Part shown: positions 8,168-59,618 of the stretch, one piece after another
How positions within the stretch are numbered: position 1 is the first letter of the stretch
Layout: each line of letters opens with the position of its first letter
The notes under the pieces: model-generated
Database searches by the model: none
Told to the model about the DNA's origin: nothing
Seen by the model: the letters and a program-made list of their open reading frames with translations, nothing else
Made by a program: the position numbers and the translations under genes
Assembly (NCBI GenBank): GCA_000995965.1
Contig: LBYD01000004.1
Span: 23,711-87,710 of the forward strand
DNA length: 64,000 nt
Origin: Candidatus Moranbacteria bacterium GW2011_GWC2_40_12
Lineage (GTDB): Bacteria; Patescibacteriota; Minisyncoccia; Moranbacterales; UBA11712
Direction of reading: 5' to 3'

Positions 8168-9637
8168 ATGAAAAAGCTCAAAATATCAATATCATATCCA
8201 CCTCTGGAATCTCCCAAGGGCGTGCCTCTCCTTTCCCAAAATCGCCAATTTCAGTGGTTTTCCGACCCGACCTATATCTATCCGATGATTCCAGCCTCGG
8301 CCGCAACTTTATTGAAAGAAAACGGTTATGAGGTTTTTTGGGACGACGCGATTGCCGAAGAACTAAGCTATCATGAATGGCTGAAAAGGTTGGAAAAAGA
8401 GAATCCGGATATTATCGCATTCGAAACCAAGACGCCAGTGATAAAAAGGCACTGGGAAATAATTAATGGCATCAAAAATTCAAAATTCAAAATTCAAAAT
8501 TCAAAATTCATTCTGATGGGTGATCATGCCACGGCTCTTCCAGAAGAATCTCTTCTAAATTCCAAAGTTGATTATGTTCTTGCGGGAGGAGATTATGACT
8601 TTATGCTTTTGAGCATCGCGAACAAATTGGCGGGGACAGCCGAGCTGGAAGGGGGAGTATATTATCGCGACGGAAAAAGCGTGGAAAATTCCGGAAAATA
8701 CGATCCTTCAAAACATGCTCTGGACGATCTTCCTCAAATTGACCGCCGGCTCACGAAGTGGGAACTTTACGCCAATAAAAATGGGAATTTCAAATATACT
8801 CCCGGGTCGTATGTCATGAACGCCCGGGACTGCTGGTGGGGAAAATGCAGTTTTTGTTCCTGGACAACGATGTTTCCGGGTGAAAAATGCCGGACTCGTT
8901 CGGCTCAAAAAGCGCTTGACGAAATCGGCGAGCTTGTTAATTTGGGCGTGAAAGAAATAATGGAAGATTCCGGTACGCTTCCAATCGGAAAATGGCTCGA
9001 AGATTTTTGCGAAGGGATGATCGAGAAGGGATACAGCGAGAAAGTGAAAATCAGCTGCAATATGAGGCTGAATGCTATCAGGGATTTCAAAATTTATAAA
9101 TTGATGAAAAAAGCGGGCTTCCGGATGATACTGTTTGGGCTTGAATCGGCGAATCAAAATACTTTGGATAAAATTAATAAAAATTTGAAAGTCGAAGAAA
9201 TAGAGCCGGCTCTCAAAATGTGCAAAGCGGCTGGCCTTGAGCCGCACATCACCGTGATGGCCGGCTATCCCTGGGAAAAGAAAGAAGATGTCGAAAATAC
9301 TTTGTGTTTTGTGAAAAAATTATTCAAGAAAGGATATGTTGATTCTTTGCAGGCGACGCTCGTGATCCCGTATCCCGGCACGCCGCTCTATAAATACTGC
9401 CGGGAAAATAATTTGCTTTTGACGGAAGATTACGCACGTTTCGACCAGCGCGAGCCGGTGATGAAAACGGAGATGTCGCCTGATGAACTCAAAAAAATGA
9501 TCGGCAAATTATACCGATCATTCGTCACGCCGAAATTTTTGGCAAAAAAAATAACCGGCATAAAGAACTGGCAGGATATAAAACACATATCTCGCGCCGG
9601 CAAAAAAGTGCTGGGGCACCTCACCGATTTTTCTTGA
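8168..9637 (+). CDS. B12-binding domain radical SAM protein
   Basis: N-terminal cobalamin-binding-like domain, Cys cluster CWWGKCSFC, and a FGLESANQNTLDKINK (Elp3/MiaB-like) core; contains the (AAAATTC)5 repeat. Confidence 0.7.
   Translation: MKKLKISISYPPLESPKGVPLLSQNRQFQWFSDPTYIYPMIPASAATLLKENGYEVFWDDAIAEELSYHEWLKRLEKENPDIIAFETKTPVIKRHWEIINGIKNSKFKIQNSKFILMGDHATALPEESLLNSKVDYVLAGGDYDFMLLSIANKLAGTAELEGGVYYRDGKSVENSGKYDPSKHALDDLPQIDRRLTKWELYANKNGNFKYTPGSYVMNARDCWWGKCSFCSWTTMFPGEKCRTRSAQKALDEIGELVNLGVKEIMEDSGTLPIGKWLEDFCEGMIEKGYSEKVKISCNMRLNAIRDFKIYKLMKKAGFRMILFGLESANQNTLDKINKNLKVEEIEPALKMCKAAGLEPHITVMAGYPWEKKEDVENTLCFVKKLFKKGYVDSLQATLVIPYPGTPLYKYCRENNLLLTEDYARFDQREPVMKTEMSPDELKKMIGKLYRSFVTPKFLAKKITGIKNWQDIKHISRAGKKVLGHLTDFS
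8475..8509 (+). repeat. (AAAATTC)5 heptanucleotide tandem repeat inside a CDS
   Basis: Five perfect 7-nt units, read directly; encodes NSKFKIQNSKF in the radical SAM protein. Confidence 0.9.
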
Positions 9638-9643
9638 AAAAGC

Positions 9644-9705
9644 AAAGCTTGGCTTTGGGGAATTCCAAGAGCTTAGCTCTTGGAAGGAAAAAAGCCGAGC
9701 TTTGG
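9644..9705. repeat. MITE-like nested-hairpin intergenic repeat, copy A
   Basis: AAAGCTTGGCTTTGGGGAAT...AAAAAGCCGAGCTTTGG with an inner hairpin; related copies at 36831, 42982, 50462, 52862 and 58336. Confidence 0.7.
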
Positions 9706-29205: not shown

Positions 29206-29302
29206 TTGAGCTAAGCCCGACATTGTTCACAGAAATCCTAGTCTTGAGGAATAAAAAAAATCGCGCCGGAACGCGATTGCGGAATATCGATTTATGATAA
29301 AT

Positions 29303-29632
29303 TCATGAAGCAAGAATCTTTTCAACCGCTTTTTCAAGGTCAGAAAGGTCATCCTTGCAAGTGCTCCAGACCGTTTCCGGATTCACGCCGAAATATTCGT
29401 GAATGATAAAGTTCCTCATGTCGATCATATTTCTCCAAGGGATGTCCGGATATTTTGAACGGAGTTTCGGCTCAAGATTGTTCGCCGCTTCTCCGATAAT
29501 CGCGAGTTGGCGCACCACGGCATCGACAGTTTTTTCATCCCGGGAGAAAGAATCATAGTCAAAGCCATTCAAATATTTTTCGATGGTTTTGACGGAGTCC
29601 CGGATATGTTTGAGATAAACCCTATCCTTCAT
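29303..29632 (-). CDS. hepT: HepT-like (DUF86) toxin of a HepT/MntA toxin-antitoxin pair
   Basis: DUF86 pattern with C-terminal RNFIIHEY (Rx4HxY). Confidence 0.75.
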   Translation of the reverse strand: MKDRVYLKHIRDSVKTIEKYLNGFDYDSFSRDEKTVDAVVRQLAIIGEAANNLEPKLRSKYPDIPWRNMIDMRNFIIHEYFGVNPETVWSTCKDDLSDLEKAVEKILAS

Positions 29633-29927
29633 ACACGGTTTCAGCGTTATGCATTACTTCGTCGCGAAAATACTTGCTCAAAGATCCCGGAGTTACAAGG
29701 TCCACTTCTCTCCCAAGATGTTCTTTGAAATGGCGATAAATCCCGGCCAGTTTGAAGAAGCCCACGCTTGCTTTCGGCTTGAACTCAATCAGAATGTCGA
29801 TATCGCTGTCGATCTTGGCAGTTCCATGCAGATATGATCCAAAAAGAGCAACTTTTTTGATCTCATCCTTGAGGCTGTCATGCTCGACGGTTTCCCGAAT
29901 AATTTTCTTGACTTCTTCCTTGTTCAT
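29622..29927 (-). CDS. mntA: MntA-type minimal nucleotidyltransferase (antitoxin)
   Basis: GSxLHGTAKIDSDIDILIEF (GSx10DxD nucleotidyltransferase motif); overlaps hepT by 11 nt. Confidence 0.75.
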   Translation of the reverse strand: MNKEEVKKIIRETVEHDSLKDEIKKVALFGSYLHGTAKIDSDIDILIEFKPKASVGFFKLAGIYRHFKEHLGREVDLVTPGSLSKYFRDEVMHNAETVYEG

Positions 29928-31230: not shown

Positions 31231-31358
31231 GAGCTGGTGTGCTTCGCGCGGTCTACGTGAACTGGAACGGTGGCGGTTGGAACGTGAATGCGAACTCTGT
31301 TGAGTTTCCGTTCAGGTGGAACGAGGGCAACCAGGTCTTCTCCCGCAACTCACTGATT
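31231..31358 (+). repeat. DGR template repeat (TR)
   Basis: Non-coding copy of the VR; in the VR frame it carries 7 AAC/AAT codons. Confidence 0.85.
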
Positions 31359-31757
31359 TCCTCTCCCGCTGTTTTGCGGGAGAGTTTTGCTCTGAAGCCC
31401 CTTTCGCCATCCTCCGAGCATTCGCCCGATTTCTTCAAGTCTTGTTGAAAGTTCAGTGAATTTATCGGTCGGAATCAGTTTGCTTTCCCAGGCAAGTTGC
31501 GCAAAAAATTTGAGAATATCAAGCTGTGATATTGTTTTTCCGAGCAGAATTATTTTTTGATCGGGCGGAAGATATGCGGCGGTGAAAGTCAACTCAAGAA
31601 CCGCCAGATATGATTGTTCAATTTTCTGTCCGATGCTGAATCGTTCGATTTTCGGAAAATTGCGATGCAATGCCAGCCAAAATTGATAAGCTTCTTTTTC
31701 TTTTTGAATAACGACCGGAAGCGTCGGGGGGGGGGGAATTTTTGAAAAGCCTGTCAT
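31350..31757 (-). CDS. avd: Avd (accessory variability determinant), four-helix-bundle protein
   Basis: FPKIERFSIG...VLELTF...LDILKFFAQLAWESKLI...EIGRMLGGWRKGL aligns block-for-block with bAvd / S23-ribosomal-type four-helix-bundle proteins; the 5' end is uncertain (Met at 31757 or GTG after the PPPP run). Confidence 0.7.
   Translation of the reverse strand: MTGFSKIPPPPTLPVVIQKEKEAYQFWLALHRNFPKIERFSIGQKIEQSYLAVLELTFTAAYLPPDQKIILLGKTISQLDILKFFAQLAWESKLIPTDKFTELSTRLEEIGRMLGGWRKGLQSKTLPQNSGRGNQ
31725..31736. repeat. G12/C12 homopolymeric tract at the divergent avd/RT junction
   Basis: 12 consecutive G on the + strand in a ~38% GC genome, 6 nt upstream of the RT TTG start, and encoding PPPP in the long form of avd. 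Confidence 0.9.
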
Positions 31758-32782
31758 TAAAAAAATTTGAGGATATAATTTCGGTTGAAAATCTTTTGCT
31801 AGCGTGGCAGGAATTTGAGCGCGGGAAGCGAAGTCGGAAAGACGTGCAGGAATTTTCTTTGCGAGTGATGGATAATATTTTCTCGCTCCACCGCGACCTT
31901 CTCAATCATACTTGGAAGCACGGCGGTTATCAAGCTTTCAAGATCAATGACCCTAAGCCGAGAGATATTCACAAAGCTTCGGTTTGCGACAGACTTTTAC
32001 ATCACGCCGTTTACCGGATTCTTTATCCTTTTTTTGAAAAAATATTTATCGCCGATTCGTATTCCTGCCAAATTAGAAAAGGCACGCACAGAGCGATTAA
32101 CAAATTTCGCAAGTTCGCATGGAAAGTCAGCCAGAACAACACGCGAACTTGCTGGGTTTTGAAGTGCGACATCAGAAAGTTTTTCGCGAATATAGATCAT
32201 GAAATCTTGCTTGGTATTTTGCGGGAGTATGTTCCGGACAAAAATATCATCCGGCTTCTTGAAAATGTGATAGGAAGTTTTTATTCAGATCGGTTTGGAG
32301 TTGGCCTGCCGCTTGGGAATCTCACTTCGCAGCTTTTTGTAAATATTTATCTGAATGAACTTGACCAGTTTGTGAAGCACAAACTGAAAGCCAGATATTA
32401 CATTCGCTATTGCGACGATTTTGTTATACTTTCTGAAAATAAATCTTGGCTTGAGCGGCAAATCCCGTTGGTAAGAAATTTTCTTTGGAAAAAATTACGG
32501 TTGAAGCTGCATCCCGATAAGGTTTTCATAAAAACGCTGTCTTCCGGCATGGATTTTCTGGGTATGGTGAATTTTCTTGATCACCGGATTTTGCGGACGA
32601 AAACAAAAAGAAAAATGTTAAGAAATATTTCGGAAAAACATTTTTTATTGAGAGAAGAATTTATTTCCGATAGTTTACTCAATCAAAGTTTGCATTCGTA
32701 TCTGGGGATATTGAAACATTGCAACGGACACAAAATTGAAGATGAGATCAGATCTCGCTTTTGCGCTGGAGGCTTGGATTAG
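31742..32782 (+). CDS. DGR reverse transcriptase
   Basis: RT domains 1-7 with YCDDF (YxDD), the DGR-specific LGNLTSQ motif and a group-II-intron-like fingers/palm; 346 aa; TTG start. Confidence 0.85.
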   Translation: MKSLSLKKFEDIISVENLLLAWQEFERGKRSRKDVQEFSLRVMDNIFSLHRDLLNHTWKHGGYQAFKINDPKPRDIHKASVCDRLLHHAVYRILYPFFEKIFIADSYSCQIRKGTHRAINKFRKFAWKVSQNNTRTCWVLKCDIRKFFANIDHEILLGILREYVPDKNIIRLLENVIGSFYSDRFGVGLPLGNLTSQLFVNIYLNELDQFVKHKLKARYYIRYCDDFVILSENKSWLERQIPLVRNFLWKKLRLKLHPDKVFIKTLSSGMDFLGMVNFLDHRILRTKTKRKMLRNISEKHFLLREEFISDSLLNQSLHSYLGILKHCNGHKIEDEIRSRFCAGGLD

Positions 32783-32802: not shown

Positions 32803-34266
32803 ATGAATAAAGCTCTTCTCGAAAAATTGAAAAAATGGCAAAGCGAAAGGGCGCGGCGGGACAATGTCGAAGCCTATCGCGTTTTGCCATATTCGGTTTT
32901 GGGAGAAATCGCGCGGCGGCAGCCGCAAAGCGCCGAAGAGCTCTTGGAAGTGAAAGGCATCAAAGAAAAAAAATTGGCAAGGTATGGAAAAGAAATTTTG
33001 GCGCTGGTGGCAGGGGAACTAAACGATCAAGGTTCGACCTTTCCCTTCTTCGAGCAGAGCTCTCAGAATTCCTCAAGGTCGAACCTTATAGAAGACAAAA
33101 TATATGAAGTTGGCGAATATCTCGATTTTTTGAATATAAAACTACTGGAAGCCGAAGCGAAGATCAAAGGCGAGGTTTCGAGCGTGGAGAATCGGGGGAA
33201 TTATGTTTTCTTTGGCATCAAAGACAAATCAGGCGAAAGCCTTTTGAATTGTTTCATCTGGGGAAACGATTATTCAGTGAGCGGTGTGGAACTTGAAGAA
33301 GGCATGGAAGTGATCATTTGGGGCTATCCGAACGTATACAGGCCAAGCGGGCGGATGTCGTTTCAAACGAAGCTCATTGAAGTTGTCGGCGAAGGGGCGC
33401 TCAAAAAAGCCTATGATGATCTCAAAAGAAAGTTGGAGGCGGAAGGATTGTTCGCGCCTGAAAGAAAAAAAAAGATTCCCGATTTTTCTCATAAGATTGG
33501 ACTGATTACATCTCACCAGGGAGCGGCCATTGGAGATTTCACCTCGAATTTGGGAAGCTATGGCTTTCAAATAAAATTCTTTGATTCACGGGTGGAGGGA
33601 AAACAGGCAGTTTTTGATCTGACGAAAGCGTTAAAATGGTTTAATAAAAATATACCGAGTTTGGATGCGATAGTCTTAGTCCGTGGGGGAGGAAGCTTCG
33701 AAAGTTTGCAGGCTTTTAACACAGAGTCATTGGTTCGTGAAGTTGCAAATTCAAAAATTCCGATACTGGCCGGGATCGGACACGAGAAAGATATTTCCCT
33801 TGCGGCGCTCGCAGCGGATAAAATGGTCTCTACTCCAACCGGAGCAGCGGTAGAAATCACAAAATCTTGGGACGAAGCGGCGGGCAAAGTGGATGAAGCG
33901 GAGAGAAATTTACTAGGCTATCTTTCGGAAGTGTTTGAGCGGTTTAAACAGGCGAAGACAAAGATTCACAGAGAGGCGGAAAAAATCGGGCAGGCCATAC
34001 TTTATAGCCGTGAAAAAATAAGCAGTTTTTCGAAAAACGTGTCTTCCAGTTTCTCGCGCCAAGTAGAAGGCATCAAGGAGAAAATAAAAAATGCCGAAAA
34101 ACAAATCAACCTCAACAATCCCGAGCGGCAATTGAAACTGGGATACAGTCTTGTGAGTCTCGGCGGAAAAATTGTGCGGAGCGTGAAAAGAGTGAGAGTG
34201 GGGGACGAGGTGGATATAAAAGTTAGTGATGGGGAAATGAAGTCGGAAATTAAAGATATAATATAG
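32803..34266 (+). CDS. xseA: exodeoxyribonuclease VII large subunit with an N-terminal HRDC domain
   Basis: The N-terminal 80 aa (LLEKLKKWQSERARRDNVEAYRVLPYSVLGEIARRQPQSAEELLEVKGIKEKKLARYGKEILALV) match the RecQ/RNase D HRDC consensus, followed by the XseA OB-fold and catalytic core; 21 nt after the RT stop. Confidence 0.75.
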   Translation: MNKALLEKLKKWQSERARRDNVEAYRVLPYSVLGEIARRQPQSAEELLEVKGIKEKKLARYGKEILALVAGELNDQGSTFPFFEQSSQNSSRSNLIEDKIYEVGEYLDFLNIKLLEAEAKIKGEVSSVENRGNYVFFGIKDKSGESLLNCFIWGNDYSVSGVELEEGMEVIIWGYPNVYRPSGRMSFQTKLIEVVGEGALKKAYDDLKRKLEAEGLFAPERKKKIPDFSHKIGLITSHQGAAIGDFTSNLGSYGFQIKFFDSRVEGKQAVFDLTKALKWFNKNIPSLDAIVLVRGGGSFESLQAFNTESLVREVANSKIPILAGIGHEKDISLAALAADKMVSTPTGAAVEITKSWDEAAGKVDEAERNLLGYLSEVFERFKQAKTKIHREAEKIGQAILYSREKISSFSKNVSSSFSRQVEGIKEKIKNAEKQINLNNPERQLKLGYSLVSLGGKIVRSVKRVRVGDEVDIKVSDGEMKSEIKDII

Positions 34267-34619: not shown

Positions 34620-35177
34620 ATGCAAAAAAAAATAAACTTAAAAAACAAGGAGGTTATGTATTCACTTCGCGAAAGCAAGCGAGCGAGGTGTCTCAGGATC
34701 ACGATCCATCCGGGAGGAGAACTTTCGGCCACTCTTCCACGCGGGATGAATATCGGTAAACTTGAAGAGTTTATCCTTCAAAAGGCCGATTGGATTTTGC
34801 GTCGCATCAATTTGGCCAAAAAAAGAAAGCCGGCCTTTCTTCTTCCAAAATCAAGCCGCAGGGAATATTTAAAAAATAAAAAAAAGGCATTTGAACTTGC
34901 GAAAGGAAAAATCGAAGAATTAAACGAGGCATATAATTTCCAATGCAAAAGAATTTCCATCCGCAACCAGAAATCAAGATGGGGAAGCTGCAGCCGGAAA
35001 GGAAATATCAATTTAAATTATAAAATAGTTTTTCTTCCGGAAAAATACCTCAACTATATCATCGTCCACGAGCTCTGCCATCTCAAGGAGTTCAACCACT
35101 CAAAAAGATTTTGGGATTTAGTCTCCCAAGTCATACCGGATTATAAGAATATACGAAAAGAATTTAGGAATCTTTGA
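34620..35177 (+). CDS. YgjP/DUF45-type (M48/WLM-like) zinc metallohydrolase
   Basis: C-terminal W-x-SC-x...HELCH (HExxH) and the DUF45 layout. Confidence 0.65.
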   Translation: MQKKINLKNKEVMYSLRESKRARCLRITIHPGGELSATLPRGMNIGKLEEFILQKADWILRRINLAKKRKPAFLLPKSSRREYLKNKKKAFELAKGKIEELNEAYNFQCKRISIRNQKSRWGSCSRKGNINLNYKIVFLPEKYLNYIIVHELCHLKEFNHSKRFWDLVSQVIPDYKNIRKEFRNL

Positions 35178-36830: not shown

Positions 36831-36891
36831 AAAGCTTGGCTTTGGGGAATGACGGGAGCTCGGCTCCCGTCAGGAAAAAGCCGAGCTTTGG
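36831..36891. repeat. MITE-like nested-hairpin repeat, copy B
   Basis: AAAGCTTGGCTTTGGGGAATGACGGGAGCTCGGCTCCCGTCAGGAAAAAGCCGAGCTTTGG; sits exactly between a stop codon and the next ATG. Confidence 0.75.
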
Positions 36892-36900
36892 GAAAAATAT

Positions 36901-37608
36901 ATGAAAAAGCTTGCTATCTTCGACATTGACGGCACGATTTTCCGCAAAAATCTCCATTTTGAATTGATTGATGAGCTGTCCTGGCTGAGAATATTTTCTA
37001 AAGATGCTCGAAAGACGTTGGTGCGGGTATATGCTGATTGGCTGGAACATCGCGGCACATACGAGGAATATCGGAAGAAAATAGTCAGCATCTATGAAAG
37101 GGAACTCAAGGGATGCTGCCAGAAAGATATTGTTGATGCCAGCCGGAAAGTGGCAGATTTCAACAAAGACCGCGTATATATTTTTACCCGGGATTTAATA
37201 AAAAAGTTAAAAAAAACAAAGTATACAATAATTGCCATTTCCGGATCCCCGATAGAAATCGTAAAGGAATACAACAAATACATGAAATTCGACGAGGTTT
37301 TTGGTTCGGTTTATGAAACGAACGGCAAGGGATGTTATACCGGAAAAACTATTTTCGAGCCAGTGAAGCACAAAGGGCATGTGGTCGGCCAATTTATTTC
37401 AGAAAAAAATATGACGCTTGAAGGGTCTTTTGGCATAGGGGACACGGAGTCAGATATCAGTTTTCTCAAAATGGTTGCGCATCCCATCGCTTTCAATCCG
37501 AATATGAATCTCGAAAAAGCGGCTCGGCGAAAGAAATGGAAAATTGTTGTTGAAAAGAAAGATGTGATATATGATATAGGAAACTTTAAGACAATAGGCG
37601 CAAAATAA
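36901..37608 (+). CDS. HAD-IB family hydrolase (phosphoserine-phosphatase-like)
   Basis: IFDIDGTI motif I; a FGIGDTESD motif IV-like region. Confidence 0.7.
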   Translation: MKKLAIFDIDGTIFRKNLHFELIDELSWLRIFSKDARKTLVRVYADWLEHRGTYEEYRKKIVSIYERELKGCCQKDIVDASRKVADFNKDRVYIFTRDLIKKLKKTKYTIIAISGSPIEIVKEYNKYMKFDEVFGSVYETNGKGCYTGKTIFEPVKHKGHVVGQFISEKNMTLEGSFGIGDTESDISFLKMVAHPIAFNPNMNLEKAARRKKWKIVVEKKDVIYDIGNFKTIGAK

Positions 37609-40620: not shown

Positions 40621-42255
40621 ATGAAATCTGATATTCAAAAAATTGTTAAAAACGCTATCCAATCCGCTTTTGGGATTGATTTTGAGGTGGAGAAAATAAA
40701 AGTGTATTATCCGCCGGAGAGGATGGGGGATTTTTCAACGAATGTGGCGCTTCTGCTTGCAAAAGAAGTCGGGAAAAGTCCGATGGAAGTGGCGGAGAAG
40801 CTGAAAGAAAAGCTTGGCTCTCAAGATCAAAGCTCGGCTTTTCTCTTTCGGCAACAAGTTGCCGAAATTCCTCAAAGCCAAGCTTTTTTCGAAAAAATCG
40901 AAATCGCCAAACCCGGTTTCATCAATTTTTGGTTGGCGGAAAATACACTACAACTAGTTGTAGTGAAAATTAATGAAGAAAAAAATAAATTCGGCAATTC
41001 GGGAATCGGGAAAGGCAAAAAAATTCATCTTGATTTTGTTTCGGCGAATCCAACCGGTCCGGTGCATATCGGGAATGCAAGAGGCGGTCCGCTTGGAGAC
41101 ACGCTCGCGAATGTGTTTGAAAAAGCGGGATACGAAGCATATCGTGAATACTATGTGAACGATGCCGGGAATCAGGTGGAAATTCTGGGGCATTCGATTT
41201 TGGGCGATAGCGAAACGCAGTATAGCGGAGAATATATAGAAGAAATAAGAAATAAGATGGAAGAAAGCGATCCGGAAAAAGCAGGGGAAAAAGGCGTGAA
41301 GATTATTCTCGAAGAAATCATCAAGCCTTCAATGGAAAAGTTTGGAATTAATTTTGATAGCTATTTTTCCGAAAAAAAACTGCAAAAAAGCGGGAAAGTG
41401 GATAAAATTATAAGCTTACTTAGGGGAAAAGGATATATCTTCGAAAAGGACGGGGCGGCTTGGTTCAAGTCAACCGAGTTTGGCGATGACAAAGATCGGG
41501 TGGTGGTGAAATCAAACGGCGAAAAAACATATTTTGGCTCGGACATTGCTTATCACAAAGAAAAATTTGATCGGGGCTTCGATATACTGATTGACATTTG
41601 GGGAGCGGACCATCACGGGGAAGTAGCGAGAACAAAAGGAGCACTCAAGGTGTTAGGTTATGAAAACAAGCTTGATGTGATTCTGACGCAATTCGTACGG
41701 GTGATGAAAGATGGGGAGGAAATGAAAATGTCCAAGCGTGCGGGGACTTATGTCAGCGTGGATGATCTCATCGGCGAAGTCGGAAAGGACGCGACCAGAT
41801 TTTTCTTTTTGATGCACAGCGCGGATACCCACATGAATTTTGATATGGACCTCGCGAAGGAGCAGAGCGAGAAAAACCCCGTTTATTATGTCCAATATGC
41901 CCATGCGAGAATTTGCAGTATTTTACGAAAGGCTGCTCTCCTAAGATCGGATCTTAGGAGCGTCCTAAGATCCGATCTTAGGAAAATGCACACAAAGGAA
42001 CGCAGTTTAGTTTTCGAACTTCTGAAATTTCCGGATCTCGTTGAAGAAATTTCGCAAAACTACGCCGTCCACTATCTCCCGCAATATGCCATGGGCCTCG
42101 CGGACAAATTCCATTCTTTTTATGACGAGTGCCGGGTGATTGATGAAAATAATTTGGAACTCACTGCTCAGCGCCTGGAAATCGTGAAGGCCGTGCAAAT
42201 TGTGCTGGCAGAAGTGCTAAAAATAATGGGAATCAGCGCGCCGGAGAGGATGTAA
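40621..42255 (+). CDS. argS: arginine--tRNA ligase
   Basis: HIGNARGG (HIGH) and KMSKRAGT (KMSKS) motifs; DALR anticodon-binding domain YVQYAHARICSILRKA; contains a tandem palindromic insert at 41936-41990. Confidence 0.9.
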   Translation: MKSDIQKIVKNAIQSAFGIDFEVEKIKVYYPPERMGDFSTNVALLLAKEVGKSPMEVAEKLKEKLGSQDQSSAFLFRQQVAEIPQSQAFFEKIEIAKPGFINFWLAENTLQLVVVKINEEKNKFGNSGIGKGKKIHLDFVSANPTGPVHIGNARGGPLGDTLANVFEKAGYEAYREYYVNDAGNQVEILGHSILGDSETQYSGEYIEEIRNKMEESDPEKAGEKGVKIILEEIIKPSMEKFGINFDSYFSEKKLQKSGKVDKIISLLRGKGYIFEKDGAAWFKSTEFGDDKDRVVVKSNGEKTYFGSDIAYHKEKFDRGFDILIDIWGADHHGEVARTKGALKVLGYENKLDVILTQFVRVMKDGEEMKMSKRAGTYVSVDDLIGEVGKDATRFFFLMHSADTHMNFDMDLAKEQSEKNPVYYVQYAHARICSILRKAALLRSDLRSVLRSDLRKMHTKERSLVFELLKFPDLVEEISQNYAVHYLPQYAMGLADKFHSFYDECRVIDENNLELTAQRLEIVKAVQIVLAEVLKIMGISAPERM

Positions 42256-42332: not shown

Positions 42333-42983
42333 ATGAACTATTACAACAACGGACCGCGAAAAAAGATGTTCCTCGACATTGAAACTCTTCCCGCGCCGGA
42401 GCATGTGCATGAGGCTTTGATGGAAATTCACGAATATCGAAAAAAGAAGAAAAGAAAAAACGGGGAAAAATATTCCAAAAGCTTCGAGCAATTTCTGGCT
42501 GAAACTGGGCTCGACGGGACATTCGGGCGGATTTTTTGCATCTCCTATGCCATCAATGACGATATGGTCCATTGCATTTGCGACGAAGACGAAAAGAAAA
42601 TGCTCGAAAATTTCTGGGAAGCGGCCAAAGACGTCGATCTCTTTGTCGGTTTTAATATAATGGATTTTGATCTCAAATATATCATCCAGCGCTCGATCAT
42701 CCACGGCGTGAAGCCGAAAACAAAGGTGCGCCTGTCTTTCGCCAGATACCGCAGCGATCCAATCTATGACGCGATGCACGAGTGGAACCAGTGGGGATAC
42801 GGCAGGAATGTTTCGCTTGATTCTCTGGCGCGGGCGCTTGGCCTCGGTTCATCAAAAACCAATATGGACGGGTCGGAAGTTTTCACCTATTACAAAAAAG
42901 GAAAGCTGAAAGAAATCTGCGCCTACTGCAACGCGGATGTTGAGGTGACGAGGAAAATATACAAGAAGATGAATTTTGAATAA
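42333..42983 (+). CDS. DEDDy-type 3'-5' exonuclease (PolB-exonuclease-like, RNase H fold)
   Basis: FLDIETLP (Exo I DxE), an FNIMDFDLKYI middle motif, and YCNADVEVTRKIY (Exo III YxxxD). Confidence 0.6.
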   Translation: MNYYNNGPRKKMFLDIETLPAPEHVHEALMEIHEYRKKKKRKNGEKYSKSFEQFLAETGLDGTFGRIFCISYAINDDMVHCICDEDEKKMLENFWEAAKDVDLFVGFNIMDFDLKYIIQRSIIHGVKPKTKVRLSFARYRSDPIYDAMHEWNQWGYGRNVSLDSLARALGLGSSKTNMDGSEVFTYYKKGKLKEICAYCNADVEVTRKIYKKMNFE

Positions 42984-43041
42984 AGCTCGGCTTTGAGGAA
43001 TGACGGGTGTTGAGCTCCCGTCAGGAAAAAGCCGAGCTTTG
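42982..43041. repeat. MITE-like nested-hairpin repeat, copy C
   Basis: AAAGCTCGGCTTTGAGGAATGACGGGTGTTGAGCTCCCGTCAGGAAAAAGCCGAGCTTTG, immediately after the stop codon. Confidence 0.7.
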
Positions 43042-43126
43042 ATGCATAATATTTACTGAGCTAAGCCCGACTTAGCTCATTTTTATAAAAAAAAGAAAAC
43101 AGGACGTTGCCTGTTTATAAAGGGGG

Positions 43127-43202
43127 TGGTGGGACGGACGGAATTCGAACCCGCGACACGGCGATTGCAAAATCGCCTGCTCTGCCACTGAGCTACCGGC
43201 CC
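43127..43202 (-). tRNA. tRNA (anticodon region TTTTGCAA; Cys-GCA or Gln-TTG)
   Basis: Manual fold: acceptor GGGCCGG/CCGTCCC (one C-U mismatch), D arm GCTC/GAGC, T arm GCGGG-TTCGAAT-TCCGT, encoded CCA; the anticodon stem GGCGA/TCGCC encloses an 8-nt loop by my parse. Confidence 0.55.
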
Positions 43203-43238
43203 ACGCATAGGTTTAATTTTTCCAGCGGAATTTTCCGC

Positions 43239-43316
43239 TGGCAGGCCCGGAAGGATTCGAACCTTCGACACGTGGATCTATGAGTCCACTGCTCTAACCT
43301 GTTGAGCTACGGGCCC
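43239..43316 (-). tRNA. tRNA-Met (CAT) candidate
   Basis: Acceptor GGGCCCG/CGGGCCT, D arm GCTC/GAGC, anticodon stem GTGGA/TCCAC with loop CTCATAGA (CAT anticodon; 8 nt by my parse), T arm GAAGG-TTCGAAT-CCTTC, encoded CCA. Confidence 0.6.
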
Positions 43317-43595
43317 GCATAAAAAGAACTGGCAGAAGGGGGACAGGGATTTGAACCCTGAATTGCGCTATCTTAGTCATCCCCCTCCTGCCCAATTGAA
43401 ATAATCTAGCAAATGTAGCTTGGATTTGTCAACATTATCTTTTTTTCAAGTGCGTACCATTGCCTTATTCAAGGCTTTATTGCTATTGTGGGGAAGTGAA
43501 GTAAAGCGTTGAAATGAACCCCGTTAGAAATTCGGGGTTTACTCGATTAACTCATAAAATATGCAATAATCTTAATTATATAAATTTCTAACGGG

Positions 43596-46698: not shown

Positions 46699-48348
46699 CT
46701 ACTTCTTTTCTATTTTTTCCATATAAGTATCTTTTAGTTTATATCCCAACTTCCGATAATATTCCCTGACGCCAATTCCCGCGATGACGGAAATATTTTG
46801 GCAACCGAATTCTACGCGCGCAATTTTTTCGGCTTCTTTGATTAACTTCTTTCCAAGCCCCGCGTGTTGGGGGGATTTTTTGTCGCGGGATTTGAGGTTC
46901 AGAAGCTTTCCGTAAGTGTGGACTTCACGGATGATGGCGGTGTGTTTGAAGTTTCCAAGACTTAGTCTTGGAAAATTAATAATTCGCAAGCGGAGCAGAG
47001 AATAAAGTTTTTTGTGATCCGGCGAGACATATTCCAGGAAGATTTCTTTTCCGCCAGACGCGTTGTAGTCTATCCGGCGCAGGATGATATCATCTTTAGC
47101 CGTATAATTTCCTCGTATTTCTCGACATCTGATGCAGTGGCATTCAACACCTTTATTTTGAATAATCTGCCGAAGGTTGGAAATATTCGGCCCGGCGGCG
47201 ATGGAGCTTTCGGGAATATCGCGAATAAGTCTTGAGATTCTGACATACGGCGGAATAATTTGCTTGATCTCCGAAATTAATTTTTCTGCCCTGGCGTTGG
47301 TCAGCGCTTCGTATTCTCCTTTTTTCCATAAACTATACAAAGCCGAATTTCGGGTGACGACGCAAGGATATATTTTCACGAGGTCCGGCTGGAAAGCGGG
47401 ATTCGAAAATATTTCTTTGAACATTTCAAGATCTTTTTTGAAACTGCTGCCGAGAAGTCCGGGCATCATATGATAGCTGACCTTGAAACCGGCGTCTTTC
47501 AAGAGTTTTGTCGCTTTGATTGTTTGCTGGACTGCGTGCCCGCGGCGGTTTTTTTTGAGCACATCACCAAAAATGCTTTGGACGCCGATTTCAACACGAG
47601 TTGCTCCGAGTTCACGATAAAACTCTATTTCTTTTTCATCCAGCGTGTCGGGGCGAGTTTCGAGGGTGAGGCCAATTACTCTATGCTTTGCTTTCTCATT
47701 ACGCATTTGTTCTTTTTGCAAACCATGGATGATTGGCTTTTTTTTGCCCGCCGAAGCCTTGGCGAAGGCTGGCGTTGCCTTTTTTGCTATTGGATAATCG
47801 TTGGCCGCTCGGTAGCATTCAGTAATAAAGTTATACTGATATTTTTTTGGCAGGTCGGAGAATGTTCCTCCCATAACAATCAGTTCTATTTTTTCGATAT
47901 CATGGCCGTTTATTTCGAGTGCCCGCAGGCGTTTTTGAACCTGATTGTATGGATTGAAATTCACGGTGATGGCGCGCATCACGGCTGGTTCATTCGAAAG
48001 ATAGCTTTTGGGCATATCCTTTTCGGTCGGGCAATAGAGGCACTTTCCGCGGCAGGGATATTGTTTAGTCAGTACGGCCACGACAGCCACGCCAGAAAGA
48101 GTGCGGATGTTTTTTGATTTAAGTATTTTTTTTAGCAATAAAAGATCGGCTTTTTTCCTCCCAAGAGCTAAGCTCCCGGAATTTCCCAAAGCCAAGCTTT
48201 GTTCATAAAAATCCCGAATGTCGGCGTTGCGGGGAGTGGTTGCGCCGAAGCGGCCGCAGATTTCTTTTTTGAGTGCTTCAAAAGCTTCCGCAGATTTGAT
48301 TTTTCTCCGGATTGATTCTTTAATGATGGTAGCGAATAACTCATTCAT
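46699..48348 (-). CDS. Elp3-like radical SAM / GNAT acetyltransferase (bacterial Elongator Elp3 homologue)
   Basis: CRGKCLYCP (CxxxCxxC) radical SAM core with RVEIGVQS, plus a C-terminal GNAT motif QHAGLGKKLIKEAEKIA; length 549 aa matches Elp3. Confidence 0.8.
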   Translation of the reverse strand: MNELFATIIKESIRRKIKSAEAFEALKKEICGRFGATTPRNADIRDFYEQSLALGNSGSLALGRKKADLLLLKKILKSKNIRTLSGVAVVAVLTKQYPCRGKCLYCPTEKDMPKSYLSNEPAVMRAITVNFNPYNQVQKRLRALEINGHDIEKIELIVMGGTFSDLPKKYQYNFITECYRAANDYPIAKKATPAFAKASAGKKKPIIHGLQKEQMRNEKAKHRVIGLTLETRPDTLDEKEIEFYRELGATRVEIGVQSIFGDVLKKNRRGHAVQQTIKATKLLKDAGFKVSYHMMPGLLGSSFKKDLEMFKEIFSNPAFQPDLVKIYPCVVTRNSALYSLWKKGEYEALTNARAEKLISEIKQIIPPYVRISRLIRDIPESSIAAGPNISNLRQIIQNKGVECHCIRCREIRGNYTAKDDIILRRIDYNASGGKEIFLEYVSPDHKKLYSLLRLRIINFPRLSLGNFKHTAIIREVHTYGKLLNLKSRDKKSPQHAGLGKKLIKEAEKIARVEFGCQNISVIAGIGVREYYRKLGYKLKDTYMEKIEKK

Positions 48349-48351
48349 GCT

Positions 48352-49170
48352 TTGGTTATCCTAACATTCAATGTTGGGGAAACCCCAATATTGAATGTTA
48401 GGATCGTGAAAGACAAGGGCACAAAAAAAATATTATCTGACCTTGAATCCGGTTATGATCTCATTGCCGAAAAGTTCTCTTCAACCCGCGCATTTATGTG
48501 GCGGGATTTGGGGTTTGTGAAGGATATGGTAAAACCGGGGGATAGAGTGTTGGATTTTGGTTGTGGGAATGGGAGACTGGCGGGATTCTTATTGGGGGAA
48601 TCGGGGAGAGAGGAGAGATTAGGCAGATATGTTGGGGTAGATATATCGCAAAAACTGATTGATATTGCCAGTCAAAAGTATTCTAACGAAAAAACGAAAT
48701 TTATAAAAGTTCACCCTGTTAAATCCACGACGAAAGGTCGGGGTGCGCCTTTGGCGCAATTTAACAGGGTAAAGCCTTCATCTTTGAGATTACCACTTAA
48801 GGATAACCAGTTCGACATTATTTTTTCCATCGCTGTTTTTCATCATTTTCCGAGCCGAGAATACGCGCTTGAAATCGCAAAAGAATTGCGTCGGGTTTTG
48901 AAACCGGGCGGAAAAATTGTCGTCACAGTTTGGAATCTGTGGCAAAAACAATTTTTAAGGTTCGGCCTTAAAAATCTAAAAAGGTCGGATCTTGAGAGTA
49001 AATCGGACTGGAGAAGTTTTTATATTCCTTTCAAAGCCGGAGAAAAAGTATTTCGGCGCTATCACCATCCTTTCAAGATAGGGGAACTAAATAGTCTCAT
49101 GAATGAAGCCGGCTTCAAAACGAGGAGAACAAAAGAGGGGTGGAATCTGGTTTATATCGGAAGAAAATAA
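48352..49170 (+). CDS. class I SAM-dependent methyltransferase
   Basis: VLDFGCGNGRLAG motif I; IIFSIAVFHHFPS; RPGGKIVVTVWN. Confidence 0.7.
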   Translation: MVILTFNVGETPILNVRIVKDKGTKKILSDLESGYDLIAEKFSSTRAFMWRDLGFVKDMVKPGDRVLDFGCGNGRLAGFLLGESGREERLGRYVGVDISQKLIDIASQKYSNEKTKFIKVHPVKSTTKGRGAPLAQFNRVKPSSLRLPLKDNQFDIIFSIAVFHHFPSREYALEIAKELRRVLKPGGKIVVTVWNLWQKQFLRFGLKNLKRSDLESKSDWRSFYIPFKAGEKVFRRYHHPFKIGELNSLMNEAGFKTRRTKEGWNLVYIGRK

Positions 49171-49788: not shown

Positions 49789-50460
49789 ATGGAAAAAGAA
49801 TTAACACATAAACAGAATCTAATTCTCGAAACCATCCGCGAGGTGATTGACGGCGGGCAGGGGAACCCGACGACGTATAAAATCGCGAAGTATCTGCAAA
49901 AGAAGGGGATGAAAGACGAGTCGGTGAAAAGCGTCTCGCAAGTTATCGAATCACTTGAGAAAAAAGATTTGGTGAAGCGGGATGTTTTTCGAAAACTGTA
50001 TCTCGTCGAAAACGAAAATATGCCGGCCGGACTCGAGGGAGTTTTTCAGGTTCCAGTTTACGGTCTGGCTTCGGCAGGGGACGCGCTGGCTTTTGCTGAA
50101 GACAATATTGACGGCTATCTTCAAATTTCGGAAAGCCTGATCCGGCCGAGCGCCAAAGCGCAGCTGTTTGCCGTGAAGACACTCGGAGATTCGATGGACA
50201 AGGAAGGAATCGGCGACGGAGATTATGTTATTTTTGAAAAAAAAGACGCCGATTTTGATTTCGACGGAAAAATTGTTGTCGCCATTGTAAACGGCCTCGC
50301 GACGATCAAGCGATATCGCAAGCTCGGAAATGGCGTCATTGGACTGTTCCCAAGCTCAACGAACAGTTTCCACCAGCCGATCTATATCCACGAATCGGAT
50401 TCGTTCATGATCGCCGGAGTTTTCAAAAAAGTTTTGCCGGTGAAATTTGTTAGCTTATAA
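49789..50460 (+). CDS. lexA: LexA-family repressor (S24 peptidase)
   Basis: N-terminal winged-helix region, an A-G cleavage-site-like LASAGDA, and a C-terminal GDSM (Ser nucleophile)...KRY(R)K (Lys) S24 domain. Confidence 0.8.
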   Translation: MEKELTHKQNLILETIREVIDGGQGNPTTYKIAKYLQKKGMKDESVKSVSQVIESLEKKDLVKRDVFRKLYLVENENMPAGLEGVFQVPVYGLASAGDALAFAEDNIDGYLQISESLIRPSAKAQLFAVKTLGDSMDKEGIGDGDYVIFEKKDADFDFDGKIVVAIVNGLATIKRYRKLGNGVIGLFPSSTNSFHQPIYIHESDSFMIAGVFKKVLPVKFVSL

Positions 50461-50461
50461 A

Positions 50462-50522
50462 AAAAGCTTGGCTTTGGGGAATGACGGGAGCTGAGCTCCC
50501 GTCAGGAAAAAGGAGAGCTTTG
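50462..50522. repeat. MITE-like nested-hairpin repeat, copy D
   Basis: AAAGCTTGGCTTTGGGGAATGACGGGAGCTGAGCTCCCGTCAGGAAAAAGGAGAGCTTTGG between the lexA stop and the next ATG. Confidence 0.75.
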
Positions 50523-50530
50523 GAAAAATA

Positions 50531-50999
50531 TATGAGACAAGAATGTTGCAAAAGGTTGCTTCCTGAAGAATGGGACCAAAAAGAAATTGTCTGGCGGGAC
50601 AAGCCGTTTTATCGCGACAAGTATTGGTCTTTTCTCCATGTGCCGTTTGATTTTGGAAAAAAGATTGTTCGAGGGCTGGAGACAATCAAAGAAGCGGGAC
50701 TTATTTCAGAACAAATGGTGCTTTCAAAGAACGATGGCCTTTGGGGAGGAGAGATGCTTATTCCGGTAAGCCAGAAAACGGACCGCTTCCAGACGGAGCT
50801 GGTGACGGGGAGATTTTTGACGCGTCTTTTTGAAGGACACTACGGCGATATGCGCCGCTGGATCAAAGAAACAAAAAAATACGCCGCCGAAAAAGGTTTC
50901 GAAGCCAAAGAGTTTATTTTTTTCTATGCCACCTGTCCCAAATGCGCCAAGAAATATGGCGACGAAGTGCAGGTGGTGGTGTTTGCGAGAGTGGAGTAA
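50531..50999 (+). CDS. hypothetical protein downstream of lexA (156 aa; CPKC zinc-ribbon-like motif)
   Basis: Chosen ATG after the repeat (ggaaaaatatATG, same context as the gene after copy B); the track start 50481 lies inside the repeat. Confidence 0.45.
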
Positions 51000-52246: not shown

Positions 52247-52864
52247 ATGTTAGAAACAATGAAAAGAAAAAAAGGATTATTTATCGTATTAGAGGGGTTA
52301 GACGGTTCGGGGACCACGACCCAGGCGAAGTTTTTGGCCGAATATCTCAAGAAAAGGAGCTATAAAATTGAATTAACATCCGAGCCGTCAAACAATATTA
52401 TTGGCGGATTGATTAGGGGAATTCTAACCCGCCAGTGGAAGATCACACCAGTCGGGCTTCAGCTTCTTTTCGCGGCGGACAGGGCACATCATCTCGAAAA
52501 TTTTGTTCTGCCGGCGCTAAAGAAAAAGCAGGTTATCATCAGCACAAGGTATTTTTTTTCCAGTCTGGCTTTTGGATCGCTGGATATTGATCAAAAATGG
52601 CTTATCGAGATAAACAAAAAATTTCTGATTCCGGACGTGACATTTTTTATCGATACGAATCCAGCAGAGTGTTTGCGAAGAATTGCTAAAACGAGAATAA
52701 GAAAAGAATTTTTTGAAGAAAAGAAAAAACTGGAAAAAGTGCGGAAAAATTATTATCAATTGGTGAAAAAATATCCGCGATTTTACAAAATTGACGGTAA
52801 TAAAAAAGAAAAAGAAGTTTTTGAAACGATAAAGAGAATTATTGATAAGTTTATTAAAAGCTAA
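52247..52864 (+). CDS. tmk: thymidylate kinase
   Basis: FIVLEGLDGSGTTTQ P-loop, and a DRxxxxS LID region (FAADRAHH). Confidence 0.8.
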   Translation: MLETMKRKKGLFIVLEGLDGSGTTTQAKFLAEYLKKRSYKIELTSEPSNNIIGGLIRGILTRQWKITPVGLQLLFAADRAHHLENFVLPALKKKQVIISTRYFFSSLAFGSLDIDQKWLIEINKKFLIPDVTFFIDTNPAECLRRIAKTRIRKEFFEEKKKLEKVRKNYYQLVKKYPRFYKIDGNKKEKEVFETIKRIIDKFIKS

Positions 52865-52923
52865 GCTTTCCCCTTTCCTGATTATTAGTCTGGAAATTCC
52901 TCAAAGCTTAGCTTTAGGATAAC

Positions 52924-58153: not shown

Positions 58154-59617
58154 TTAAATTGCTATTCCTACCAGGCCGAAAGCTTTTGCTTTTGTGATTT
58201 TGACTTTCACGAAACTCCCCAAGCACCAATCCCGCTTCGCGTGATGATGCGGGGCAAGGCAGATGGGTATTTTTTTGTTAGAGGAAAAAAGAACTTTCTT
58301 TTGGGTGCGGGTGTGAGCGAGATATTTGTGTTTATCCAAAGCTCGGCTTTTTCCTTCCGCCGCTTTGGCGCGGCGGAATTCCTCAAAGCCAAGCTTTTTA
58401 TCGATCAAAACCTCAAAAACTTTTCCGAAATATTTTTTGTTGTTCGCGAGCGCGGTTTTGGCGAGGATATCCGTGAGAACCTTTTCGCGGCGGGCCTTTT
58501 CTTTTTTTGACACAGTGTCTTTCAGTTTCCAAGCGGCGGTTTCGGGGCGGGGGGAATACTGGGAGATATAGGCCATGTCGAATTTCAACTCCTTCAAAAA
58601 CTTCGCCGTGTTTTCGAACTGTTTTTTGGTTTCGCCTGGGAAACCGACGATGATGTCAGTGGAGATGCAGGGGCTGATTCCGGGTTTATATTTTTTATAA
58701 ACGTTGATGACTTTCTTGATAAGTTTTTTATAATGTTCAATTGTGTATTTGCGGTTCATTCGTCTAAGTATTTCATTGTCTCCCGATTGGGCGGGGAGTG
58801 AAATATACTCGCAAACTTTCTTTGCCTTGGCAATTGTTTCGATCAGTTCGTCCGACATGTCTTTGGGATGGGATGTAAGGAAAGTCAGCCAGAAATTGCC
58901 CGGGATTTGTTCAATGAGGCGGAGGAGTTTGGGGAAACCGATAGTTGGATCCTCCTTCACTAAAGCTTCGGAGGATGAATTCTTTTTGCTGTCGCAATAA
59001 GAATTCACATTCTGGCCCAGCAGGATAATTTCTTTATATCCTTTCTTAATCAAATTTTTTACCTCATAGAGGATATCTTTGGCGGGCCGGGAATATTCAC
59101 GTCCGCGGGCATAAGGGACGACACAATAGGCGCAGAAATTGTCGCAGCCGGTCATTATCGGCACGTATGCCGTGTATGGTTTTGCATAGTCGGGCTTAAT
59201 TTTAAGATAGTCGTTATATATTTTATGGCGAGAAGAATTTTGAATTGCGAAACGTGAATTGGAAATAAATTTGGAGATATCTGACGGAAAATCATTAATG
59301 GTCGTGAATAGATTTACTTTTCTTTTCAGTCTTCTTTGCACGTCTTTGCGATGGGCGAGACAGCCGGTGAGGATGATTATTTTCTCCGGATGTTTTTTCC
59401 GGATGTTATGGATCTGGCCATACACTCGGTCCTCGGCGGTTTGGCGCACGCCGCAAGTGACGAAAATGATTAAGCCCGCCGACGCTAAAGCTTTGGCGGG
59501 TGAATCCGCCTCGTTTTTAAAAGCTGGTTCAAGGCCCAGCTTTTCTAAAATCGTAGAAATTCTTTCGGCATCGGAATAATTCATCTGGCAGCCGAATATT
59601 TTCATGAAATATTGCAT
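58154..59617 (-). CDS. miaB: tRNA-2-methylthio-N6-dimethylallyladenosine synthase (MiaB-type methylthiotransferase)
   Basis: MTTase N-domain GCQMNYSDAE, radical SAM CDNFCAYCVVP, C-terminal TRAM domain; the TRAM region carries an in-frame copy of the MITE-like repeat (58336-58397). Confidence 0.85.
   Translation of the reverse strand: MQYFMKIFGCQMNYSDAERISTILEKLGLEPAFKNEADSPAKALASAGLIIFVTCGVRQTAEDRVYGQIHNIRKKHPEKIIILTGCLAHRKDVQRRLKRKVNLFTTINDFPSDISKFISNSRFAIQNSSRHKIYNDYLKIKPDYAKPYTAYVPIMTGCDNFCAYCVVPYARGREYSRPAKDILYEVKNLIKKGYKEIILLGQNVNSYCDSKKNSSSEALVKEDPTIGFPKLLRLIEQIPGNFWLTFLTSHPKDMSDELIETIAKAKKVCEYISLPAQSGDNEILRRMNRKYTIEHYKKLIKKVINVYKKYKPGISPCISTDIIVGFPGETKKQFENTAKFLKELKFDMAYISQYSPRPETAAWKLKDTVSKKEKARREKVLTDILAKTALANNKKYFGKVFEVLIDKKLGFEEFRRAKAAEGKSRALDKHKYLAHTRTQKKVLFSSNKKIPICLAPHHHAKRDWCLGSFVKVKITKAKAFGLVGIAI
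58336..58397. repeat. MITE-like nested-hairpin repeat, copy F (inside the miaB CDS)
   Basis: On the - strand: AAAGCTTGGCTTTGAGGAATTCCGCCGCGCCAAAGCGGCGGAAGGAAAAAGCCGAGCTTTGG, the same termini as copies A-D with a different inner hairpin; translated in frame as ~LGFEEFRRAKAAEGKSRALDK. Confidence 0.65.
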
Positions 59618-59618
59618 G

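Follow-up and report, generated by a model that had tools for sequence, protein, structure and literature searches.

A short hairpin-forming sequence recurs throughout the 64-kb stretch of Moranbacteria DNA analyzed here (referred to in its entirety as the window), and its dispersal raises the question of whether the repeat is a signal that serves its host, a product of local mutation, or an element that spreads on its own account. Arm-pattern searches combined with a covariance model revealed nine full copies of the element in the window (∼1 per 7 kb), together with one short relative composed of arms only. The 20-nt pattern of the 5' arm gave 11 matches in the window, compared with 0.12 expected from shuffled sequence, and the 3' arm pattern gave 6 matches, compared with 0.10 expected. 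The covariance model was built from eight of the window copies; the ninth, at 33026-33089, was found by this model without having contributed to its training. The features identified are as follows.

9644 to 9705, plus strand: full copy, intergenic; 83.8 bits; MFE -34.5 kcal/mol, z -6.0
33026 to 33089, minus strand: full copy, in frame and antisense in HRDC-XseA, peptide QGSTFPFFEQSSQNSSRSNL, in the HRDC-OB-fold interdomain linker; 62.3 bits
34571 to 34612, plus strand: short relative with outer arms only, AAGGTTCGGCCTT-aaaaatttat-AAAGGTCGAACTTT; 23.1 bits
36831 to 36891, plus strand: full copy, intergenic; 87.3 bits
40809 to 40821, plus strand: solo arm AAAGCTTGGCTCT, 6 nt upstream of the ArgS copy and in the opposite orientation
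40828 to 40886, minus strand: full copy, in frame and antisense in ArgS, peptide QSSAFLFRQQVAEIPQSQAF, approximately residues 70-89, in the linker of the N-terminal domain; 81 bits
42982 to 43041, plus strand: full copy, after the DnaQ-like exonuclease gene; 84.4 bits
48141 to 48200, minus strand: full copy, in frame and sense in the gene of the Elp3-like radical-SAM enzyme, peptide QSLALGNSGSLALGRKKADLL; 74.8 bits
50463 to 50522, plus strand: full copy, between the S24 peptidase and hydrolase genes; 81.9 bits
52856 to 52915, minus strand: full copy, between Tmk and GatB and antisense to both; 72.7 bits
58336 to 58397, minus strand: full copy, in frame and sense in MiaB, in a frame differing from that of the Elp3-like copy, peptide KKLGFEEFRRAKAAEGKSRAL, in the C-terminal TRAM region; 75 bits

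Four of the full copies lie on the plus strand and five on the minus strand. All five copies listed in an earlier reading of this DNA (the sequence-only reading; 9644, 36831, 42982, 50462 and 58336) were recovered with coordinates that were exact or no more than 1 nt off. What had been taken for a degenerate copy near 52862-52915 is the full copy at 52856-52915, a member of a sub-family with GCTAAGC/GCTTAGC arms, and the full copies at 40828-40886, 48141-48200 and 33026-33089 and the arm-only relative were absent from that list. The same sequence is present in independent ENA, JGI and NCBI assemblies, and the repeats are therefore not an assembly artefact.

The range of the element was established by a scan with the 5' arm in one genome per species (596 Gb), for which ∼35 chance matches were estimated. 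The matches listed cluster in Moraniibacteriota/Parcubacteria MAGs, with scattered single matches elsewhere. At least 77 full sense-strand copies (at least 46 bits) were identified in at least 22 Moranbacteria/Parcubacteria genome bins, all at CPR-type loci, and their sites differ between species. The earlier proposal of a genome-wide, dispersed REP/MITE-like family is thereby borne out and extends to the lineage. Among the matches listed, unrelated genomes with a 20-mer match held no full copy detectable by the covariance model, and within the same set the family is restricted to Moranbacteria-like Parcubacteria (CPR). Three bins labeled Bathyarchaeia or Bdellovibrionales also bear full copies. 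The loci concerned are L007, L047 and L054 (DATGZC01, "Bathyarchaeia archaeon SMAG_U10653") and L060, L063, L068 and L085 ("Bdellovibrionales"). Given that the "Bathyarchaeia" ArgS (P0045) is 74% identical to that of the window, at least this bin looks mislabeled, and the bins of both labels are probably mislabeled or contaminated CPR genomes. Phage, plasmid and viral-contig collections contained no element, the single viral 20-mer match lacking a full one. In Rfam, only tmRNA and tRNAs passed their thresholds in the window. No family reached its gathering threshold over a copy, the best permissive matches scoring 6-18 bits against thresholds of 38-107. A search of the literature found no description of such elements in CPR.

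The element is a nested hairpin of 57-71 nt, with a mode of ∼60 nt. Its outer stem of 13 bp pairs AAAGCYYRGCTTT with AAAGCYRRGCTTT (also given as AAAGCTTGGCTTT and AAAGCCGAGCTTT), and each outer arm is a mini-palindrome in itself (AAAGC-NNN-GCTTT). Within this stem lies a purine-rich, asymmetric and near-invariant internal loop, with GAGGAAT on the 5' side and AGGRAAA on the 3' side, followed by an inner hairpin of 8-13 bp that is almost wholly different from copy to copy with pairing retained; a short tail, G-G/A, completes the unit. The termini are thus mutually inverted and the center variable yet self-complementary, as the sequence-only reading had described. Folding gave a stable nested hairpin, and this is true of both strands (RNA MFE -30 to -38 kcal/mol, z -5 to -7), with the sense strand 5-7 kcal/mol more stable as RNA than the reverse. 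With the covariance model the sense strand reached 62-87 bits and its reverse only 20-36 bits, from which it follows that the element has polarity.

In an alignment of the 77 copies, which was fitted to the covariance model and so favors structure somewhat, 93.8% of cells form standard pairs, compared with 77.1% for column shuffles and 30-60% for slid partners, and these margins are large. Two-sided change was observed at 17 of the 23 pairs, in 284 cells, and in the 13-bp outer arms 98.7% of cells pair. The outer stem exists in at least five compensated versions (GCTTGGC/GCCGAGC, GCTAAGC/GCTTAGC, GGTTCGACC/GGTCGAACC, GCTCAGC/GCTGAGC and GTCCGGC/GCCGGAC), across which the loop motifs are near-invariant. 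In one sub-family the stem gains 2 bp beyond a 1-nt bulge (CC...AGG, GC...AGC); this was found in 23 of 74 copies, compared with 7.3 ± 2.1 in shuffles.

Besides the purine loop, two features distinguish the strands. A U.G wobble at outer pair 7 (alignment pair 9-87) is present in 48 of the 77 copies and is strand-specific. A tandem GA/GA mismatch follows the 4-bp lower inner stem in 20 of 73 distinct hairpins, with a further seven near-variants, and its TC/TC counterpart occurs in none; the stems on both sides of the mismatch covary. Copy 33026-33089, for example, combines covarying outer-stem arms (AAGGTTCGACCTT/AAGGTCGAACCTT) with the GA/GA mismatch in its inner stem. Outside the fixed wobble, G.T outnumbers A.C by 18 to 10, which is not a significant skew (p = 0.18), and the case for selection on a single strand consequently rests on the loop, the GA/GA mismatch and pair 7. 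These could in part be inherited from founder copies.

The copies had been described as lying precisely between a stop codon and the next start. This fails: conserved genes harbor four of the nine window copies in frame, among them copy 58336-58397 of the earlier list itself, within MiaB. Among the matches listed, 37 of the 77 copies (25 antisense and 12 sense) have at least 40 open codons to each side in a frame that runs through them, and for 15 of these the open stretch is at least 100 codons in each direction, although such ORF-based calls of coding context become rough where a copy lies near the end of a gene. The excess of antisense copies arises partly because one sense frame has a TGA in the common GAGG version of the loop. 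The term intergenic, also used in the sequence-only reading, is apt for about half of the copies; the other half are in frame within conserved genes.

Further hosts are MnmA, the CCA-adding enzyme (two copies), TsaD, UvrD/PcrA, TatD, a Mur ligase and an M24 peptidase. The NAD-dependent DNA ligase LigA hosts copies in five genomes, at three or more positions, and a gene for a DGR-type reverse transcriptase in L079 hosts an in-frame copy. A bias toward nucleic-acid enzymes, hinted at by the first ten hosts, was broken by the Mur ligase and the M24 peptidase. In an AlphaFold2 model of ArgS (mean pLDDT 69 from a shallow alignment, the N-terminal domain being otherwise confident), the insert (approximately residues 68-89) is predicted to be coil, with pLDDT 46-52, between a helix at 54-67 and a strand at 90-96; as modeled, it occupies a linker. 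The preserved frames suggest that copies within coding sequence (CDS) are read through as ∼20 extra residues in either orientation. The copies that persist occupy short spacers between genes or, in frame, permissive linkers within housekeeping proteins.

The core lengths of in-CDS copies fall in all three modulo-3 classes, and their junctions must therefore differ from one copy to another. Length modulo 3 was uninformative as a test of translation, since a core of 59 nt dominates both the in-CDS and the other copies. Excision at the RNA level, whether intron-like or BHB-like, was rejected because the frame is open in both orientations and the structure differs by strand.

Comparison of orthologous sites in related genomes revealed extensive turnover. 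At the first ArgS site, no element is present in P0005, P0008, P0018, P0022 and P0064; an antisense element is present in the window and in five others, and in L024 (P0004-type) the element is sense and starts four codons earlier than that of the window. Further relatives have different inserts of 16-27 aa at this site. A second ArgS site holds the element antisense in one relative and sense in another, and ArgS proteins range from 522 to 579 aa at 70-80% identity. The solo arm at 40809-40821 was probably left behind by an earlier copy in sense orientation, of the kind that L024 retains. At the Tmk-GatB junction, L108 has no element and its stop and start overlap; the window carries the element there, and L066 a different double palindrome. 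At the S24-hydrolase junction, the L108 element (L108:941-1005) shares site, arms and flanks with that of the window; its inner hairpin is entirely different and recurs at another locus of the L108 genome. Copy 42982-43041 has orthologues in L097 and L024, with a different inner hairpin in L024, and the orthologue of copy 48141-48200 is L024:7220-7284. The TRAM site of MiaB carries an insert in all four species compared, of a different type each time, and one of these species has two additional copies elsewhere in the protein; across species, MiaB has at least three different element sites.

The same inner hairpin is common to the non-orthologous window sites 36831, 42982 and 50463, and another is shared by the MiaB copy of L018 and the window copy at 9644. 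This occurrence at non-orthologous sites, both within the window and between species, indicates that the whole unit is copied. Complete elements are nested between the arms of others in L098, L042 and L018, and foreign arms occur in the flanks of nine copies. Near-identical strains were ∼100% identical at every copy, with no presence/absence polymorphism, and no recent movement was thus caught. Taken over all sites, a structured 60-nt unit has spread to many unrelated positions, which may be empty, filled, flipped, nested or altered by replacement of the inner hairpin.

The reading that accounts best for these observations is that of non-autonomous selfish DNA, structurally distinct from the Rickettsia palindromic elements (RPEs). 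That the repeat is a selfish, spreading, RPE-like palindromic element, translated through when inside genes, is considered probable. No transposase or integrase was detected by Pfam in the 64-kb window, and no IS200-like TnpA was detected in ∼1 Mb of CPR sequence, the latter a weak result from an approximate query against genome fragments. Target-site duplications, which a classical MITE would carry, were looked for around the copies; none of 2-8 nt was found at any offset, the best case being 13 of 73 against 6.8 expected in 150 tests.

An alternative in which nothing moves must be weighed here. The hairpins would arise and persist in situ by template switching in quasi-palindromes, with gene conversion among copies, and compensatory changes would then need neither selection nor transposition. 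The replacement of inner hairpins at orthologous sites with arms and flanks unchanged accords with this proposal, as do the orientation flips at the same codon position at the two ArgS sites, where inversion through the arms would preserve length and frame, and as does the failure to find either a transposase or a target-site duplication. However, the asymmetric loop and the GA/GA mismatch, which are the most conserved features of the element, would not outlast template switching, and the first copy at each new site must still arrive from somewhere. Moreover, empty sites, several sites per gene and complete nested elements require insertion of the whole unit. Origin in situ is accordingly judged unlikely, and replacement of the inner hairpin at orthologous sites could nonetheless reflect gene conversion rather than transposition.

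For the selfish element, a minimal mechanism can be proposed. A trans-acting enzyme would bind the folded single strand, as ssDNA or RNA, and the purine loop, the GA/GA mismatch and the U.G wobble at outer pair 7 would form the recognition surface. Since the conserved features are specific to one strand and show no relation to the direction in which host genes are transcribed, they would most plausibly serve the propagation of the element itself. Single-strand recognition, taken as a step alone, is put forward tentatively, as something that we would sooner doubt than assert. New copies would tend to land in the apex of existing palindromes, and recombination through the conserved 13-20-nt arms would swap or invert the interior. 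Inversion between inverted arms keeps the length, and with it the reading frame, and would account for the finding of either orientation at a single codon position. The absence of target-site duplications would suit a single-strand "peel and paste" mobilization of the IS200/IS605 or RAYT type. A DGR cassette is present in the window, and a role of reverse transcription, though conceivable, would be speculative.

A more ambitious version of this mechanism seems improbable. It holds that the element would be one of several families of a CPR-wide "protein-riddling" class of hairpins, a second family (CCTAA...TTAGG) and others being present at the same protein sites. The class would be mobilized via a folded single-stranded intermediate by a type of enzyme new to such elements, with retroposition by a DGR-type reverse transcriptase as one candidate and the purine loop and GA/GA mismatch as the recognition signal. 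DGR-type reverse transcriptases are frequent in these genomes, one being in the window and another bearing a copy. If this reading were true, the class would be a major and unrecognized source of length variation and of novel surface loops among core CPR proteins.

The five intergenic window copies occupy very short spacers. Copy 9644-9705 (inner hairpin TTCCAAGAGCttaGCTCTTGGAA) starts 6 nt past the stop of a radical-SAM gene (8168-9637), and copy 36831-36891 adjoins the TAA that ends a 67-aa ORF, with the ATG of a HAD-hydrolase gene (36901) 10 nt beyond it. Copy 50463-50522 lies between the stop of the S24 peptidase gene (50458-50460) and the ATG of the hydrolase gene (50532), and gene callers prolong the hydrolase ORF into it from an internal ATG at 50481. 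The remaining two supply or overlap the TAA stop of the upstream gene: the first bases of copy 42982-43041 overlap that of the DnaQ-like exonuclease gene (42981-42983), and an arm of copy 52856-52915 provides that of Tmk (52862-52864). The arm-only relative likewise lies between a stop codon and an ATG, at 34620. The sequence-only reading had noted a recurring ggaaaaatatATG context; this is indeed present at 36885-36903 and 50517-50534, although only part of it belongs to the element. The G-G/A after GCTTT is element sequence, the A-run is mainly a feature of intergenic copies, and the ATG is the start of the downstream gene. The flanks read GGAAAAA by consensus on the 3' side and are rich in T and A on the 5' side.

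A cis-acting RNA element, such as a terminator, an mRNA-stabilizing hairpin, an RNase processing site or a donor of ribosome-binding sites, kept by selection on expression, might be suspected. The hairpin is very stable, with its sense strand the more stable as RNA; the loop motifs GAGGAA and AGGAAA resemble Shine-Dalgarno sequences; an ATG lies 7-22 nt downstream in 11 of 38 intergenic copies; and some copies provide the stop codon of the upstream gene. Nevertheless, the terminator-forming role suggested by the sequence-only reading is not sustained: an intrinsic terminator has a GC-rich hairpin followed by a T/U run, whereas no T-run follows any copy on either strand, the 3' flank being GGAAAAA, and the terminator scan flagged no copy. 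Orientation relative to co-directional flanking genes is unbiased (six sense and five antisense intergenic copies), and approximately half of the copies are in CDS; in the 25 of these that run antisense to the mRNA, the transcript would carry the pyrimidine complement of the conserved loop. The Tmk-GatB junction of L108, with stop and start overlapping, works without an element. Selection for a role in expression is therefore regarded as a decidedly unlikely origin of the family, and the selfish element remains the preferred reading. As a separate observation, the terminator scan did flag a small terminator-like structure shortly after copy 42982, at 43057-43079, consisting of a 9-bp hairpin and then a T-run. 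The sequence GAGCTAAGCCCGAC occurs there and, as its first half only, at 29208-29221.

That the repeat is a recombination or protein-binding site serving the host (an integron attC, a Xer/dif-like site or a nucleoid-protein site) is scarcely credible: the attC-like size of 57-71 nt, imperfect inverted repeats with a variable center, strand-specific extras, post-stop position and two direct AGGAA motifs as a possible protein-binding pair are outweighed by termini (AAAGC...GCTTT) without attC core motifs, by the lack of an integrase in the window, by flanking genes that are syntenic core housekeeping genes with no cassettes, and by in-frame copies within essential genes. Integron attC sites have R''/R' core sites (RYYYAAC...GTTRRRY), a cassette array and a nearby IntI integrase, and membership of that class was rejected.

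By analogy of function, the closest known system is the RPE, reportedly described by Ogata et al. in 2000. RPEs are selfish palindromes that often lie in frame in housekeeping genes of a reduced genome (PMC10969869, PMC3184786). Like them, the CPR element is palindromic, non-coding by origin, resident in a reduced genome, and without a known transposase. Both are intergenic and, unusually often, in frame in unrelated housekeeping genes at positions that the fold tolerates; in the present family, 37 of the 77 copies are in ORFs. The two differ in host (Alphaproteobacteria compared with CPR) and in length, RPEs being ∼105-150 bp (PMC10969869, PMC3184786); the CPR element is set apart from RPE families 1-10 by size and description. 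The CPR element also differs in its nested hairpin, near-invariant purine loop, covarying arms and hypervariable inner hairpin, and in that either orientation and every reading frame are tolerated. What is distinctive here is RPE-like behavior in a different phylum and at half the size, combined with a nested architecture in which invariant asymmetric loops are set in covarying stems.

REP sequences are extragenic, with a RAYT gene alongside, and are characterized in PMC3733652 as single hairpins of 20-40 nt with a 5' GTAG or CGTC tag. In common with REP/BIME-RAYT systems and PATEs, the CPR element is a short hairpin repeat without target-site duplications and shows paired changes across sub-families, strand-specific features and a tendency of elements to cluster and to be targets of further insertion. 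By contrast, its copies start with AAAGC or AAGGT in place of the GTAG/CGTC tag, are ∼60 nt and nested, and are often intragenic. No RAYT (Y1 HUH) gene was detected in the window or in the ∼1 Mb of CPR sequence, for which the query was approximate and the genomes were fragments.

As a rule, classical MITEs (Correia/NEMIS, RUP, ERIC, Nezha) measure 100-400 bp, are flanked by a defined target-site duplication (e.g. TA) and have termini that match those of a parent IS. The CPR element resembles them in being small and multicopy with terminal inverted repeats, and in lying mainly at gene boundaries with occasional in-frame ORF fusion. Its inverted termini, 98.7% paired, and its length of 57-71 nt with no coding capacity of its own are those of a MITE; it differs in lacking the duplication, and no parent IS with a transposase was found by Pfam in the window or, with the approximate TnpA query, in the ∼1 Mb. 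PARCELs are described (PMC2996958) as palindromic intragenic tandem units of surface-type repeat proteins in Mollicutes and some eukaryotic microbes. On that description, the likeness lies in palindromic repeats residing in coding sequence, and the difference in that the CPR element is scattered singly through enzymes.

The genomes of CPR bacteria are very small, and mobile elements are generally considered scarce in them. In the window of one such genome, a 60-nt selfish hairpin would be present about once per 7 kb, having colonized essential genes (for an aminoacyl-tRNA synthetase, DNA ligase, tRNA-modification enzymes and helicases) without disrupting them. This would constitute a second, independent case of the Rickettsia-type phenomenon, again in a reduced genome. 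The element explains much of the length variation among close CPR orthologues, as in ArgS, and gives rise to gene-calling artefacts, with ORFs prolonged into copies and stop codons supplied by them. It can also be used as a lineage marker that exposes mislabeled bins, and its strong covariation and invariant asymmetric loops provide a concrete target in the search for the mobilizing enzyme.

A second hairpin family, with CCTAA...TTAGG ends and a variable palindromic interior, was observed at 41938-41983 (ArgS), 48358-48404 and L066:218-262. In ArgS it is present as two tandem copies in frame (peptide LLRSDLRSVLRSDLRK), and ArgS proteins of relatives have other versions of this insert at the same site. 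Between the Elp3-like gene and the next (48358-48404) it forms a long hairpin, ATCCTAACATTCAATGTTGGGGaaaCCCCAATATTGAATGTTAGGAT, and at the Tmk-GatB junction of L066 it is a double copy. MiaB (58154-59668) and the Elp3-like protein (46699-48348) contain more small in-frame palindromes outside the main family, e.g. at 59514-59549, 58976-59007 and 46949-46977 (peptide NFPRLSLGNF), and MiaB has extra segments that are missing from relatives, e.g. CLAPHHHAKRDWCL. These additional palindromes and segments suggest that several hairpin families riddle the MiaB and Elp3-like proteins.

The DGR cassette of the window (∼31350-32782), comprising bAvd (PF22296, called in strain L121) and RVT_1, lies directly upstream of the XseA gene that bears copy 33026-33089. 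Other assemblies of the same species have 36 additional bases after a poly-G tract upstream of the reverse-transcriptase gene (31736/31737 compared with L120:14059-14094). This difference may be assembly or strain variation at a homopolymer; considered as a strain-level polymorphism of the element, it proved unrelated to it. A HepT/MNT (nucleotidyltransferase) toxin-antitoxin pair at 29303-29927 on the minus strand adjoins GuaA. At 43127-43386, also on the minus strand, ARAGORN called two tRNA genes with unusual anticodon loops (anticodons "tg" and "cata"), and Rfam placed a third, truncated-looking tRNA at 43336-43386, with 29.4 bits against a threshold of 29.
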